Assembly: GCA_964384905.1 (NCBI GenBank)
Contig: CAYLND010000001.1
Coordinates: forward strand, 9,915-73,914
DNA length: 64,000 nucleotides
Direction: 5' to 3'
DNA from: an uncultured Acidobacteriota bacterium
GTDB taxonomy: Bacteria; Acidobacteriota; Polarisedimenticolia; Gp22-AA2
Position 1 is the stretch's first letter; the number at the start of each line of letters is the position of its first letter. The position numbers and the translations under genes are program-made. The notes beneath the pieces are model-generated. The model saw only the letters and a list, made by a program, of their open reading frames with translations. It did no database searches and was not told where the DNA came from. Positions 14,997 through 20,129 of the stretch are shown piece by piece.

Positions 14997-16319
14997 TCAT
15001 GGATAGAGCCGGTTGAGCGTGCGTGGGTAGGGGATCGCTTCGCGGAGATGATGGATACCGGCGACCCAGGCGACGAACCGCTCGATCCCCATGCCGAACC
15101 CGGCGTGCGGCACCGAGCCGTACTTGCGGACGTCGAGGTACCAGCGGAACGCCTCCACGGGAAGCTTGTGCTCCTCGATGCGCCGCAGCAGGAGATCGTG
15201 GTCGTGGATGCGCTGGCTGCCGCCGATGATCTCGCCGTACCCCTCGGGCGCCAGGACGTCGACGCACAGGGCCCGGTCCGGCGCCTGCGGGTCGGGTTGC
15301 ATGTAGAACGCCTTGATCGCCGCCGGATAGTGGGTGATCATCACCGGCCGCTCGAGCGCCTCGGTCAGCACGGTCTCGTCGAACCCTCCGAAGTCGCCGC
15401 CCGGCTCGAACGGCGGCGCGTCCTGCTGACGCGCCCGCGCCCGCACGTCGTCCCGCATCAGGACGGCGGCGGCCTCGTCGTACGTCATGCGCGGGAACGG
15501 CCGGCGGATGGCCTCCAATCGGGTGACGTCCCGCTCGAGCGTCGTGAGCTCCGCGCGGCAGCGCTCGAGCGTCCGGGCGACCAGCGTCACGATGAAGTCC
15601 TCGGCCAGATCGAGAATCTCGGGCAGACCCGCGTAGGCGACCTCGGGCTCCACCATCCAGAACTCCGTGAGATGGCGGCGCGTCTTGGACTTCTCCGCCC
15701 GAAAGGTCGGCCCGAAGCAGTACACCTTGCCGAAGGCCAGGCAGGCGGGCTCGAGGTAAAGCTGACCCGACTGGCTGAGATAGGCCTTCGTCTCGAAATA
15801 GTCGGTCTCGAACAGCGTCGAGGTGCCCTCGCAGGCCGCGGGGGTCAGGATCGGCGAGTCGATCAGCACGAAATCGCGCTCATAGAAGAAGTCGCGAATG
15901 GCCTGACTGATCTCGCTGCGGATGCGCAGGAGAGCGTGCTGTTTCGACGAGCGCAGCCACAGGTGGCGGTGATCCAGAAGGAAGTCGGGCCCATGCTCCT
16001 TCGGACTGATCGGGTAATCCTGGGCCTGCTGGTGCACGGTGATCGAGGCCAGCTTCATCTCGTAGCCCCCGGGCGCCCGGTCGTCCTTGCGGATCGTGCC
16101 CTCGACCTCCAGCGACGACTCCTGGGTGACCTTCTGGCAGGCCTCGAACACGGCGGCGGACACCTCCGGCTGGAACGCCACGGCCTGCAGGTAGCCGGTG
16201 CCGTCGCGCACGATCAGGAACGCCAGCTTCCCCTTTTCGCGCTTGTTGTAGAGCCAGCCGCGGACCCGGACGTCCTGACCCTCGTGCGCGCCGATCCTCT
16301 TGATGGTGGTCGTCTGCAC
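14997..16319 (-). CDS. asnS: Asparagine--tRNA ligase (class IIb aaRS; AspRS-type not fully excluded)
   Basis: OB-fold N-terminus and class II motifs 1-3 ([17 protein letters not shown]). Confidence 0.8.
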
Positions 16320-16479
16320 CCTCTCTCCGCAAGAAGGCGGAATTATAGGAGGCGCCCGAGATCGCGGTCAAGAAACGCTCCGGGCGGGATCGAACGCGGA
16401 CGCGCGGCGGCCCGATGATATAAGGGACCGTCGGCGGGGCCTCGCGCGCAGCGCCGGCGCCCCGAGCGGAGGTGGTCCG

Positions 16480-17409
16480 TTGCCGTCGTCCGTGGGTGGG
16501 GCGCGCGACCGTCCGGTCGAGGCAGGATCGGCGGCCGTCGTCGTGCGCCTCTGCCGTCCGCAGGATCGGAGCGCCCTGCTCCGTCTCGGGCACCCGCCCG
16601 TGGTCGCCCGCATCCTCTGTCCCGCGGCAGGACGCGACCTGCTCTGGCGCCTCCGGGGCACCCGCTCGGTCTCCGTGGTGGCGGAGGAGACGGCGACCGG
16701 GCTGCTCGTCGGCTCCGTGCAGTTCATCCAGACGGCGCGCCGGCCAGGGACCTGGATGTTCGGGCACTGGCGCGTCGCCGCCGGCAGGCGCCGGCAGGGC
16801 CTCGGCCGCCGGCTGCTTCACGAGGGCGCGCTCCTCCTGCCGGCCGCGCGCCGCCTGTACTCGTATGTGGACTGGGGAAACGAGCAATCCATGGCGGCCC
16901 ACGAGCGCTGCGGCTTCGAGCCCGGCCGCTCGCTGTTCGGGAGTGCCCCGCTCGGGCTGCTCTCGACCATCGGACCGGCGACACCGGCGCTGCGTCTCGA
17001 GCCGGCCGGCCGGCGGGATTGGTCGTCGCTGTTCGGCCTCTACGCGCGCGCCATGGGGATCCTGTGGCTGCGTCTCGCTCCGGGGCTTGGTCCGGGGAAT
17101 TTTCTCGGCGGCGCGCTCGCCGGGATCCGGGTCGCCCTGGTCGCCGTCGTGCGCGGCCCGGGCCGGGATGCCCGGGCCTCCGGCTTCGTTCTGTGGGAGG
17201 GTCGGCGCGTCACGTTCTTCGCCGAGCCGGACGTCTGCGACACCGCCCTGCTCGCGCGCGTGGCGCTGCAGATCATCGCCCTCGGGGGTCGGCGGGATTC
17301 GACGCTCGAGGTGCGCGGCCTGCCGGCCGCGCTCCTGGAGAAACCGGGGCCGATCGCCGCGCAGATTCTGATGGGGATGCCGGACGTCCGCACGCAGTGG
17401 ACGGTCTGA
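16480..17409 (+). CDS. GNAT-family acetyltransferase with ~150-aa C-terminal extension of unknown function (TTG start with GGAGG RBS)
   Basis: RRRQGLGRRLL acetyl-CoA motif; start inferred from RBS GGAGGTGG 7 nt upstream of TTG. Confidence 0.45.
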   Translation: MPSSVGGARDRPVEAGSAAVVVRLCRPQDRSALLRLGHPPVVARILCPAAGRDLLWRLRGTRSVSVVAEETATGLLVGSVQFIQTARRPGTWMFGHWRVAAGRRRQGLGRRLLHEGALLLPAARRLYSYVDWGNEQSMAAHERCGFEPGRSLFGSAPLGLLSTIGPATPALRLEPAGRRDWSSLFGLYARAMGILWLRLAPGLGPGNFLGGALAGIRVALVAVVRGPGRDARASGFVLWEGRRVTFFAEPDVCDTALLARVALQIIALGGRRDSTLEVRGLPAALLEKPGPIAAQILMGMPDVRTQWTV

Positions 17410-17429: not shown

Positions 17430-19532
17430 TCAATGGGAGGCGGCGGCCGTTCCTTCCTTGGCGGCCTTGTGGGCCGCGACGATCTTCGCCTGCAAGTGGG
17501 AGGGAACCTCCTCGTAGTGCGCGAACGACATCCGGTACGATCCGCGGCCGCCCGTGATCGACTTGAGCGTCGACGCGTAGGTCAGCATCTCGACCATCGG
17601 GACCTGGGCCTTGATCGCCTGCATCGAGCCCTGGGCGTTCATCCCCTGGACCCGGCCGCGCCGGGAGTTCAGATCCCCCATCAGGTCGCCCATGTACTGC
17701 TCGGGGGCGGCGATCTCCACGTTCATGATCGGCTCGAGGAGGGTGGCTCCGGCCTCCTCCATCGCCTTCTTGAAGGCCAGCGAGCCCGCGATCTTGAAGG
17801 CGATGTCCGAGGAGTCGACCGTGTGATACGAGCCGTCGAACAGGATGACGCGGAAATCGACCACGGGATACCCCGCGAGGAAGCCCTGCATCCGGGCGTC
17901 CTGAATGCCCTTCTCCACCGAGGGTATGAAGTTCTTGGGGATGGAGCCGCCGAAGATCTCGTCCTTGAATTCGAATCCCGCGCCGCGCGACAGCGGCTCG
18001 AGCTTGATCCAGCAGTCGCCGAACTGACCGTGGCCGCCGGTCTGCTTCTTATGCCGTCCCTGGGCCTCCGCCTTCTTCTTGATGGTCTCGAAGTAGGGCA
18101 CCTTGGGGGCGTGCAGGATCGCCTCGACGCCGAACTTCTTTTTCATGCGTGCCAGGGCGACCTCGACGTGCAGATCGCTGTTGCCGGCGATGATCAGCTC
18201 GTGCGTCTGGGCGTCGCGGCGGAACTGGATGGTGGGGTCCTCCTCGACCAGACGGTGCAGGACCTGGGAGATCTTCTCCTCGTCGGCCCGCGACTTGGGC
18301 TGCAGGGCGAAGGCGATCGAGGGCTCCGGAAACTCGACCTTCGGGTAGAGGATCGGGTGGGCCTTGTCGGCGAGCGTATCGCCCGTGCTGGTCTCCTTGA
18401 GCTTCGGCACCGCGGCGATGTCACCGCTGCGGACCTCCGGCACCGGCTCCGACTCCTTCCCCTGCAGGGAGAGGATGGCCCCCAGACGCTCCTGCGCGTC
18501 GCGGCTGGCGTTGTAAACGGTCGTGTCCGATTTGATGGAGCCGGAGTAGACGCGGAACAGGGAGATCTTGCCGGAGTAAGGGTCGGCGATCGTCTTGAAG
18601 ACGAACGCCGAATAGGGCTCGCCGGGCGTTCCCAGACGCTCCACCGGCGCGCGGTCCTTGGGGTTCTCGCCCTTGAAGGGGGAGCGCTCGCCCGGATGGG
18701 GCAGGAGCGCGATCAGAACATCGAGGATCGGGTGCGCCCCGATGTTTCCCAGGGCGGAGGCGCACAGGATCGGGAAGATCGTCCGCGCCTTGACTCCCTT
18801 GGACAGACCCGCCGCCAGCTCCTCCTGCGACAGGGCGCCCTTCTCGAAGAAGGTCTCCATCAGGGAGTCGTCCACCTCGGCCACCACCTCCACGAGCTTG
18901 TCGCGCGCCTCCTTCGTCGCGGCCGTGAGCTCGGAGGGAATCTCCGTCACCTTGTTGCGGCCGCTCTCGTCCTTCTCGTACACGTACGCCTTGTTCGCGA
19001 TGAGATCGACCACGCCCGAGAACGCCTTCTCCGCCCCGATCGGAATCTGCACCGGGACCGCCTGCCGCCCGAAGGCCTTGGTGATCGAGTCGACGGCCCG
19101 CGCGAACGAGGCGTTCTCGCGATCCAGCTTGTTGACGACGAACAGCCGCGGCAGGTCGAAACCGGCGGCGTATCCCCAGGCCTCTTCGGTCTGCACCTCG
19201 ACGCCCGCCACGCCGTCGATGACCAGGAGGGCCCCGTCCACGACACGCAGGACCGCCTTGGCGTCGGCGATGAACGCGCCGTAGCCCGGGGTGTCCAGGA
19301 CGTTCAGCTTGACCTTCTTCCACTCCAGATGACACAGGGCGGAGGAGATGGAGACTTTGCGGGCGATCTCCTCCTCGTCGAAGTCGGAGACCGTGTTGCC
19401 CTGGTCGACGCGACCCAGGCGGTTGACAGTGCCGGAGGAGAACAGGAGAGATGATGTGAGGGAGGTCTTGCCGGAGGAGCCGTGACCGATGATCCCGACG
19501 TTGCGGATCTCGGACATCTCAAAGACCTTCAT
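17430..19532 (-). CDS. Elongation factor G paralog (EF-G-like translational GTPase, divergent G motifs)
   Basis: Five-domain EF-G architecture; G1 GHGSSGKT, G3 DTPGYGAF (no catalytic His), G4 NKLD, G5 SAL. Confidence 0.8.
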   Translation of the reverse strand: MKVFEMSEIRNVGIIGHGSSGKTSLTSSLLFSSGTVNRLGRVDQGNTVSDFDEEEIARKVSISSALCHLEWKKVKLNVLDTPGYGAFIADAKAVLRVVDGALLVIDGVAGVEVQTEEAWGYAAGFDLPRLFVVNKLDRENASFARAVDSITKAFGRQAVPVQIPIGAEKAFSGVVDLIANKAYVYEKDESGRNKVTEIPSELTAATKEARDKLVEVVAEVDDSLMETFFEKGALSQEELAAGLSKGVKARTIFPILCASALGNIGAHPILDVLIALLPHPGERSPFKGENPKDRAPVERLGTPGEPYSAFVFKTIADPYSGKISLFRVYSGSIKSDTTVYNASRDAQERLGAILSLQGKESEPVPEVRSGDIAAVPKLKETSTGDTLADKAHPILYPKVEFPEPSIAFALQPKSRADEEKISQVLHRLVEEDPTIQFRRDAQTHELIIAGNSDLHVEVALARMKKKFGVEAILHAPKVPYFETIKKKAEAQGRHKKQTGGHGQFGDCWIKLEPLSRGAGFEFKDEIFGGSIPKNFIPSVEKGIQDARMQGFLAGYPVVDFRVILFDGSYHTVDSSDIAFKIAGSLAFKKAMEEAGATLLEPIMNVEIAAPEQYMGDLMGDLNSRRGRVQGMNAQGSMQAIKAQVPMVEMLTYASTLKSITGGRGSYRMSFAHYEEVPSHLQAKIVAAHKAAKEGTAAASH

Positions 19533-19559
19533 GCGAGGGTTCCCTCACCCCCGCGCACG

Positions 19560-20129
19560 TCACTTCCCGGACTTCACCTCGTCGTAGACCTTCTGCACCA
19601 CGGACTTCACGACGGGGCAGCGCGGATCGTTGACGTAGCAGCGGGCCAGCGTATCGTTCTTGCAGCCGCAGGAGCACATCTCGCTGTTCACGCGCTGGAG
19701 AAATTTCTCCTTCCGCCCGGGCTTCAGCCCCGCGACGTCGATGCCCGGCAGCTCGGTGAAATAGTTGGCGACCGCGACGATCGGAATCGTGTTGGTCGCG
19801 GCCGGAACCCCTTTGACGGCGCCGGTGGCGTTCTCCGGCTGCAGCTCCGGCGCGTCGAGTGGAGTGTTGTCGGTGTCGGCCGCAGGATTGGCCTTCGCCT
19901 CCTGCGCCGCGGGGGGGGCCGGCGTGGCCTGAGCGTCCGGGGCTTTGGCCGGAGTCGAGCCGGCTTCGGGGCCGCCCGACCGGGAGCAGGCGACCGGGAG
20001 GAACAGCAGAGCAAGCAGCGCTGCCAGGAGCGTCGTACGTCCGCGGGCGACCGGCACTGGATCTCTCCTTCCAAGCCTGGAATGCTTGACAGAGTGCGGG
20101 AGTGTACCGCCGGGCAGGGGCCAAGTCAA
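19560..20129 (-). CDS. Predicted secreted/lipoprotein with Pro/Ala-rich linker and C-terminal Cys-rich motif (CSCGC...C...C)
   Basis: Basic n-region + hydrophobic stretch ending ...PVAC; five Cys within the last 45 residues; immediately upstream of the EF-G paralog. Confidence 0.4.
   Translation of the reverse strand: MTWPLPGGTLPHSVKHSRLGRRDPVPVARGRTTLLAALLALLFLPVACSRSGGPEAGSTPAKAPDAQATPAPPAAQEAKANPAADTDNTPLDAPELQPENATGAVKGVPAATNTIPIVAVANYFTELPGIDVAGLKPGRKEKFLQRVNSEMCSCGCKNDTLARCYVNDPRCPVVKSVVQKVYDEVKSGK

Follow-up and report, generated by a model that had tools for sequence, protein, structure and literature searches.

A probable EFG II / EF-G2-type elongation factor G paralog with tyrosine at the catalytic histidine position, encoded next to a probable five-cysteine lipoprotein in an uncultured Acidobacteriota bacterium

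Introduction

What kind of translation factor is an elongation factor G (EF-G) homolog that has lost the histidine of its catalytic centre, and does it mean anything that its gene sits directly behind one for a cysteine-rich, exported protein? Both questions are raised by a locus in a 64,000-nucleotide (nt) stretch of DNA from an uncultured Acidobacteriota bacterium (GTDB lineage Bacteria; Acidobacteriota; Polarisedimenticolia; Gp22-AA2; assembly GCA_964384905.1, contig CAYLND010000001.1, positions 9,915 to 73,914 of the forward strand), which we call the window and which has a G+C content of about 70%. A preliminary description of this DNA had picked out the EF-G homolog and its tyrosine, predicted from it an altered or absent ribosome-stimulated GTPase activity, and remarked on the oddness of the pairing. 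Here, we place the window protein, with good confidence, among the EFG II or EF-G2-type paralogs and ask how far its sequence, its conservation among relatives and its gene neighbourhood constrain what it may do.

Results

A tyrosine at the catalytic position

The 700-residue window protein contains all five EF-G domains, with Pfam matches to GTP_EFTU (residues 8-278), EF-G_D2/GTP_EFTU_D2 (307-388), EFG_III (401-474), EFG_IV (476-594) and EFG_C (598-682). Together with the NKLD and SAL motifs found in its translation, these bear out the architecture first described for it. In a phmmer alignment with Thermus thermophilus EF-G (1DAR; 626 bits), the G domain is free of gaps, GHGSSGKT stands opposite AHIDAGKT, and Tyr84 stands opposite the histidine of DTPGHVDF; the earlier readings of the P-loop and of switch II were thus correct, and re-alignment, proposed as a way of recovering a histidine at the catalytic position, left the tyrosine in place. 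Relative to canonical EF-G (EFG I), the catalytic centre carries four changes, namely Ala to Gly16, Thr to Leu25, RGITI to RKVSI and His to Tyr84. The P-loop histidine is kept as His17, as are G1 (GxxxxGKT), G3 (DxxG), G4 (NKxD) and G5 (SAL), and the loops at the tip of domain IV read HKKQTGGHGQF and SYHxVDSS. The coordinates of these motifs and of the neighbouring features are collected in Table 1.

Table 1. Positions in the window of the EF-G2-type gene, its motifs and the features preceding it
Feature	Position	Strand	Details
EFG II / EF-G2-type elongation factor G paralog (probable)	17430..19532	(-)	700 aa, five domains; from Pfam, NCBIfam and alignment
G5, SAL, residues 259-261	18750..18758	(-)	translation, homolog alignment
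G4, NKLD, residues 134-137	19122..19133	(-)	translation, homolog alignment
G3 / switch II, DTPGYGAF, residues 80-87	19272..19295	(-)	alignment to 1DAR
Tyr84 codon, catalytic-histidine position	19281-19283	(-)	alignment to 1DAR
G2 / switch I, RKVSI, residues 58-62	19347..19361	(-)	alignment to 1DAR; counterpart of RGITI in translational GTPases
G1 / P-loop, GHGSSGKT, residues 16-23	19464..19487	(-)	translation and alignment to 1DAR
Spacer, lipoprotein stop to EF-G2 ATG	19533..19559	(-)	27 nt, with purine-rich Shine-Dalgarno-like GTGAGGGA
Probable lipoprotein	19560..20057	(-)	165 aa from GTG 20057; signal peptide with near-invariant Cys, Pro/Ala-rich linker, C-terminal five-Cys module
Five-Cys module, CxCGC-x7-C-x6-C	19563..19793	(-)	C-terminal, in predicted three-helix domain; Cys residues invariant
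Ribosome-binding site GGAAGGAGAG	20063..20072	(-)	5 nt upstream of GTG 20057
Sigma-70-type promoter-like element, TTGACT-17 nt-TACACT	20101..20129	(-)	5' of lipoprotein gene

Assignment to EFG II / EF-G2

The EFG II subfamily, as described by Margus, Remm and Tenson (PLoS One 2011; PMC3150367), keeps a G1 motif of the form GhxxxGKT, a G3 motif DxPG without the histidine, and G4 and G5, while RGITI is lost and relaxed to xxxSx. This is the pattern of the window protein, including a feature that the preliminary description had overlooked: its switch I reads RKVSI, with the RGITI consensus lost and a serine in the place where xxxSx has it. The same authors list six type-I positions that discriminate EFG I from EFG II, in 1WDT numbering 16 (Ala/Gly), 25 (Thr/Leu), 61 (Thr/Ser), 291 (Ile/Thr), 333 (Ala/Gly) and 352 (Gly/Lys), together with seven type-II positions that are conserved in EFG II only (D216, V250, L264, K471, K472, E513 and G603; PMC3150367). 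Read through the 1DAR alignment, the window protein has the EFG II state at all six of the former (G16, L25, S61, T314, G358 and K377, facing A19, T28, T64, I316, A360 and G379 of 1DAR), and it matches five of the seven latter exactly (D221, K495, K496, E540 and G630), with I255 and I269 as conservative replacements of Val and Leu.

Profile searches gave a compatible picture. The top NCBIfam model for the window protein is NF009381 (PRK12740.1-5; 958.8 bits, cut-off 583), and the same model comes first for the T. thermophilus EF-G homolog 1WDT (809.6 bits), with the lower models ranking alike; the 1WDT sequence used was that of the PDB chain, whose identity was verified. Scores for NF009377, 'EF-G-like protein EF-G2' (635.9 bits), and NF058620, 'EFG2_Bacteroid' (618 bits against a cut-off of 1000), fall under the respective cut-offs, and by the latter score the window protein is outside the Bacteroides subgroup. 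EFG II genes are found outside the str operon (rpsL-rpsG-fusA-tuf; PMC3150367). The window gene is likewise flanked by the lipoprotein gene and an NTP_transf_5 gene on one side and by GNAT and AsnRS genes on the other, with rpsL, rpsG and tuf not adjoining, and no second EF-G or EF-Tu-like sequence was found in the 64-kb window.

Two results weigh against this assignment. The window protein passes the equivalog cut-off of TIGR00484, 'EF-G' (739.3 against 659.4 bits), and it is closer to canonical 1DAR, at 626 bits, than to any of the EF-G2s 1WDT (498 bits), 9K0Z (492) and 7UVP (489). As regards the former, 1WDT fails TIGR00484 at 489.7 bits, and the model does not separate the EFG II clade of the window from EFG I. 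As regards the latter, 1WDT and 1DAR score 435 bits against each other, and such three-taxon bit scores, with 626 for window and 1DAR and 498 for window and 1WDT, cannot settle a topology; the window clade has the look of an EFG II that evolves slowly. Taking the signature residues, the shared best model and the location outside the str operon together, we conclude that the 700-residue gene is very probably an EFG II / EF-G2-type paralog, a placement made by signature residues and the common NF009381 match and not by a tree. The EF-G2 family has been known since 2005-2011 and has three structurally characterised members, and loss of the histidine is normal within it, so that the window gene is an additional acidobacterial member of a known family.

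Conservation among acidobacterial relatives

Relatives of the window EF-G2 run into the thousands in the protein database. The top 120, which are 60-100% identical to it and derive for the most part from Acidobacteriota and 'Candidatus Polarisedimenticolia' metagenome-assembled genomes (MAGs), carry DTPGY without exception (120/120). A genome scan returned 410 related stretches, and the best 80 loci belong to Polarisedimenticolia-like, Terriglobia, Bryobacterales, Vicinamibacteria and Aminicenantes MAGs. Switch II reads DTPG[YF], one DAPGY among them, in all 79 of the loci that reach the N-terminus, and the matches are full-length and free of stops.

We also aligned 198 acidobacterial homologs, which make up a family with identities of 54-92%. 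Of these, 185 have Tyr and 10 have Phe at position 84, while G16, H17 and G18 are each found in 193-194. Switch I is conserved to varying degrees along its length (R in 194, K in 168, V in 116 or I in 73, S in 143 or T in 52, and I in 173). Little or no variation is seen at the EFG II signature residues or in the two tip loops of domain IV. None of the 198 sequences contains an internal stop. Judged by this alignment, selection maintains an aromatic residue at the catalytic position, and the window EF-G2 is not a pseudogene, since its homologs are intact and stop-free and hold so many positions invariant; the check for pseudogenes among relatives, raised as a possible refutation, turned up none.

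The upstream lipoprotein gene

The open reading frame (ORF) listed upstream of the EF-G2 gene (19560..20129, minus strand) has 189 codons from a TTG start. It is a real gene for a probable lipoprotein, as the preliminary description had it, although its product does not end in CSCGCKNDTLARCYVNDPRCP: this motif lies near the C-terminus and is followed by 17 more residues. The start also needs correction. The listed TTG at 20129 is itself the -35 hexamer of the promoter-like element, both hexamers of which are invariant in seven aligned loci, with the DNA further upstream unconserved; downstream of the element, the alignment of the seven relatives shows a conserved GAAGGAGA followed by GTG. Because the TTG sits within a conserved -35 hexamer and a conserved ribosome-binding site and GTG follow, translation most likely begins at GTG 20057, giving a product of 165 residues.

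The N-terminus encoded from this start is MPVARGRTTLLAALLALLFLPVAC. In the window copy the sequence is LPVAC, with Pro at position -3 of the lipobox pattern [LVI][ASTVI][GAS]C, and the signal-peptide cysteine is at least 90% conserved in homologs, many of which have LAAC, LAGC or VAGC. The product is probably exported and lipid-anchored. Both this gene and that for EF-G2 are conserved and intact in relatives, so neither is a chance ORF.

The gene pair and its neighbourhood

In the window the two genes lie on the same strand, 27 nt apart, and a scan of this spacer found no terminator-like site. The spacer is nearly identical in four relatives (L001, L002, L004 and L005). Given a short spacer without a terminator-like site and a single conserved promoter-like element before the pair, the two genes are probably co-transcribed in the window from that one promoter, in keeping with what had been proposed from their immediate succession. 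The lipoprotein gene stands directly 5' of EF-G2, with the same orientation, in each of the 14 testable loci at which EF-G2 shares 73% identity or more with that of the window, and the same adjacency is seen in divergent metagenomic relatives (L082, with an EF-G2 67% identical, L084 and the contig of P0175).

The arrangement surrounding the pair is conserved as well. The loci in question have the syntenic block QueA-QueC-QueE-Nfo-(NTP_transf_5)-lipoprotein-EF-G2-(GNAT)-AsnRS-RimO, where brackets denote genes that come and go. The spacer between lipoprotein and EF-G2 genes measures between 7 and 204 nt, depending on the relative, and in those with spacers of 130-204 nt (L007, L009, L011 and L023) an extended -10-like element, TGTGCTATAGT, with the consensus CGCTGTG(C/T)TATAGT, is conserved just 5' of EF-G2, which suggests independent transcription of EF-G2 at these long-spacer loci.

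Other Acidobacteria, whose EFG II is at most 61% identical, have none of the neighbours that surround EF-G2 in the window. At two loci from Terriglobia / Acidobacteriota MAGs (L016 and L019, at about 6.3-13.8 kb) EFG II lies between topA upstream and lgt/RluD-like pseudouridine synthase genes downstream; lgt encodes prolipoprotein diacylglyceryl transferase. At 40 loci, mostly from Bryobacterales, a gene for an MltD-like lipoprotein of about 600 residues lies downstream of EFG II on the same strand. Neighbouring genes at the lower-GC loci were identified by ORF clustering, as a filter based on GC3 is unsuited there. Because the pairing is limited to one class and lies inside a conserved syntenic block, and because EF-G2 has a separate promoter-like element in some relatives, the case it makes for a functional link is weak, and lineage-specific inherited adjacency in Polarisedimenticolia-like genomes appears to fit it better than a functional partnership. 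The pairing that had been called odd is thus real as an adjacency, while what it says about function is limited.

Some further observations concern the neighbourhood on the other side of EF-G2. The GNAT-family ORF (16300-17409, plus strand) overlaps the AsnRS gene (14997-16319, minus strand) by 20 nt at the AsnRS start, and is missing from the syntenic loci L007, L008, L010, L011 and L023. A true start further downstream is probable for this ORF. Searches of the window with Rfam, at gathering thresholds, and with ARAGORN found no known Rfam family and no tRNA gene.

The five-cysteine module

The C-terminal domain of the lipoprotein, of about 75 residues, contains a module of about 60 residues with the pattern LPGxDLxxL...N.E.CTCGC...TLA.C..NDP.C. 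It has no match among the named families of Pfam or NCBIfam, and a profile search with the module against PDB sequences gave nothing better than E = 0.33. AlphaFold2 applied to the domain only gave a model of three helices around the cysteine cluster with a predicted local distance difference test score (pLDDT) of 86.7, for which Foldseek found no neighbour in the PDB (best E = 8.8); the model of the full 189-residue ORF was poor (pLDDT 56.8) and was not used.

The module is fairly widespread. A profile search over 1.84 billion representative proteins found it in 454 clusters, in some proteins as two or three tandem copies. In others it is joined to ComEA-like HHH_3 domains (29 of 150), to ResA/TlpA-like thioredoxin folds (11 of 150) or to SEC-C (6 of 150); caspase-like domains also occur among its fusion partners. 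The module is extracytoplasmic and unrelated to translation, and is plausibly redox-active or metal-binding. We regard it as a candidate for an undescribed extracytoplasmic domain family, which may merit a family description of its own.

Two sequences join parts of EF-G2 to the module. In P0227, on a contig of 528 bp (L081), about 35 N-terminal residues of an EF-G2 (with GHGDAGKT) run into the module, and in L085 (632-925) an EF-G2-like N-terminus lies 3' of a module protein and continues into unrelated Gly-rich sequence. Both come from very short contigs and are probable assembly chimeras or rearrangements, and we rejected them as evidence of a link between EF-G2 and the module.

Discussion

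Proposed role of the window protein

By analogy with the characterised EF-G2s, the window protein would be an auxiliary ribosome-binding translational GTPase, additional to the canonical EF-G of the str operon. It would bind GTP and the ribosomal A site, the latter by means of its intact domain IV, and would then either promote slow translocation or hold ribosomes in the post-translocation state. Deprived of the canonical histidine-activated water, GTP hydrolysis would be weak, absent or otherwise catalysed, and such a factor would most likely be useful in starvation or stress. The prediction of altered or absent ribosome-stimulated GTPase activity is sound in so far as the chemistry must differ from that of EF-G; in its strong form it is unsafe, as T. 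thermophilus EF-G-2, which has the same tyrosine, is reported to be active. The characterised EF-G2s disagree on GTPase activity, which sequence alone does not decide, and the mechanism proposed here is drawn from analogy with them; on this footing the window protein is probably an auxiliary translocase or a ribosome-holding factor, and its GTP hydrolysis would be non-canonical and probably reduced.

Alternative explanations

The same protein could be seen in several other ways. Were it the main or only EF-G of its organism, the lineage would translocate with a factor that lacks the histidine, and such a role would agree with the score above the TIGR00484 cut-off, with its standing as the closest to canonical EF-G among the EF-G2s compared, with the lack of any other EF-G gene in the 64-kb window and with the name given to it in public records. 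Against these points stand the full set of EFG II signature residues, a location away from rpsL, rpsG and tuf, and a survey of 305 genomes in which EFG II always occurred alongside another EF-G, usually EFG I, while single-copy EF-Gs were always EFG I (PMC3150367); we consider a sole EF-G very unlikely. Equally improbable is a ribosomal protection protein like Tet(M)/Tet(O), or another antibiotic-resistance factor. The window protein does have a fold in common with the tetracycline ribosomal protection proteins and is distantly similar to them, and the structure of Bacteroides thetaiotaomicron EF-G2 was even deposited as 'TetQ', but the window protein reaches only 329.9 bits with NF012153 (tet_protect), whose cut-off is 775, and 174-241 bits with the specific Tet models, whose cut-offs are 900-1425; domain IV has loops of the EF-G type, and the gene lies in a housekeeping context without a mobile element. 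As for a decaying, non-functional duplicate of fusA, of which loss of the catalytic histidine and of RGITI might be read as a symptom, the conservation data refute it and leave it next to no credence: the gene is full-length and free of stops in 79 of 79 loci and holds many positions invariant across 54-92% identity. An EFG II / EF-G2-type paralog thus remains the assignment we favour.

Taking the gene to encode such a paralog, it may further be asked whether it forms a functional two-gene module with the lipoprotein, for example a stress operon in which slowed translation would be coupled to a thiol or metal signal from the envelope. The constancy of the adjacency (14/14 of the closer loci, and L082, L084 and the P0175 contig), the conserved promoter-like element before the pair, the contiguity of the pair while the flanking NTP_transf_5 and GNAT genes come and go, and the fusion of the module elsewhere to ResA/TlpA-like thiol-disulfide oxidoreductases all speak for such a module. 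However, the whole block from QueA to RimO is syntenic in the same loci, so that inherited gene order explains the adjacency; the spacer stretches from 7 to 204 nt, and the long-spacer loci have their own -10-like element; the neighbours in other Acidobacteria are unrelated; and the two products act in different compartments. We hold a functional module to be unlikely, and prefer inherited adjacency. A proposal that goes further, and that we rate as somewhat more doubtful still, would make the acidobacterial clade a minimally diverged EF-G2, close to a canonical EF-G but for a natural exchange of His for Tyr, that might still hydrolyse GTP under stimulation by the ribosome and by a mechanism not involving histidine, with the Polarisedimenticolia operon, through its exported five-Cys (redox or metal) protein, linking envelope stress to a translocase switch.

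The assignment has a practical side. Public records name the window protein plainly 'elongation factor G', and automated annotation does not tell its clade from the canonical translocase. It is better annotated as a paralog of EF-G2 type whose catalytic centre has been rebuilt, and is not to be taken as the translocase of the organism.

Comparison with known systems

Two of the systems with which the locus can be compared are not EF-G2s. Extracytoplasmic thioredoxins of the ResA/TlpA type (P0256 and P0296) have in common with the window lipoprotein a C-terminal module LPGxDL...CTCGC...TLA.C..NDP.C, whereas the lipoprotein lacks their thioredoxin fold and consists only of signal peptide, linker and module. 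Canonical EF-G (EFG I, fusA, 1DAR) is collinear with the window protein over about 683 residues, almost without gaps, but has AHIDAGKT, RGITI and DTPGH where the window protein has GHGSSGKT, RKVSI and DTPGY, differs in the state of all six discriminating residues, and is encoded in the str operon.

The structurally characterised EF-G2s differ from the window protein in other respects. That of B. thetaiotaomicron (7UVP/8DMF; NF058620) is likewise an EFG II member without the catalytic histidine, but its motifs are GSSGSGKT, YGYSV, DCPGS, with Ser and not Tyr, and NQLD; translocation without GTP hydrolysis is attributed to it in PMC12775393, citing Han 2023. The Mycobacterium smegmatis EF-G2 (9K0Z/9K10; 492 bits) resembles the window protein in having Tyr for the catalytic histidine and in being a second EF-G encoded outside the str operon. 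It differs in the loss of the P-loop His, Ile and Asp (GPSGG), in having TKLD and in a degenerate G5, whereas the window protein keeps His17, Arg58, NKLD and SAL. According to a recent preprint (10.64898/2026.05.25.727771), the mycobacterial factor is non-essential, has no ribosome-dependent GTPase activity, with its Tyr98 facing away from the gamma-phosphate, and is unable to recycle ribosomes; its proposed role is the trapping of post-translocation ribosomes during stress. In EF-G1, an H88Y mutation nearly abolishes GTPase activity (same preprint). The hallmarks of such GTPase-dead EF-G2s, namely loss of the P-loop histidine and of residues contacting the sarcin-ricin loop, and degenerate G4 and G5, are not those of the window protein.

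The closest of these EF-G2s is that of T. thermophilus, EF-G-2 (1WDT/2DY1, 'elongation factor G homolog'), which reads GHAGSGKT and DAPGYGDF and has, like the window protein, Tyr at the position of the catalytic histidine. The two proteins are 38% identical over 688 columns, and have in common a P-loop of the type GH..SGKT with its histidine, a switch II of the type D.PGYG.F, the five domains, the domain IV loop KKQTGGHGQ[FY]GD and the EFG II signature residues. At 665 residues, with deletions, T. thermophilus EF-G-2 is the shorter of the two, and has TKLD for NKLD and HRTTV for RKVSI. As cited in PMC3150367 (Connell 2007), GTP hydrolysis and support of poly(Phe) synthesis are reported for it. 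Because it retains His17, Arg58, NKLD and SAL, the nucleotide pocket of the window protein appears nearest to this GTPase-competent form, and less like the degenerate mycobacterial and Bacteroides ones. The acidobacterial clade is widespread and, for EFG II, unusually well conserved, keeping the P-loop His, NKLD and SAL despite the Tyr at its catalytic position, and thus offers a convenient natural system in which to ask why T. thermophilus EF-G-2 hydrolyses GTP and mycobacterial EF-G2 does not.

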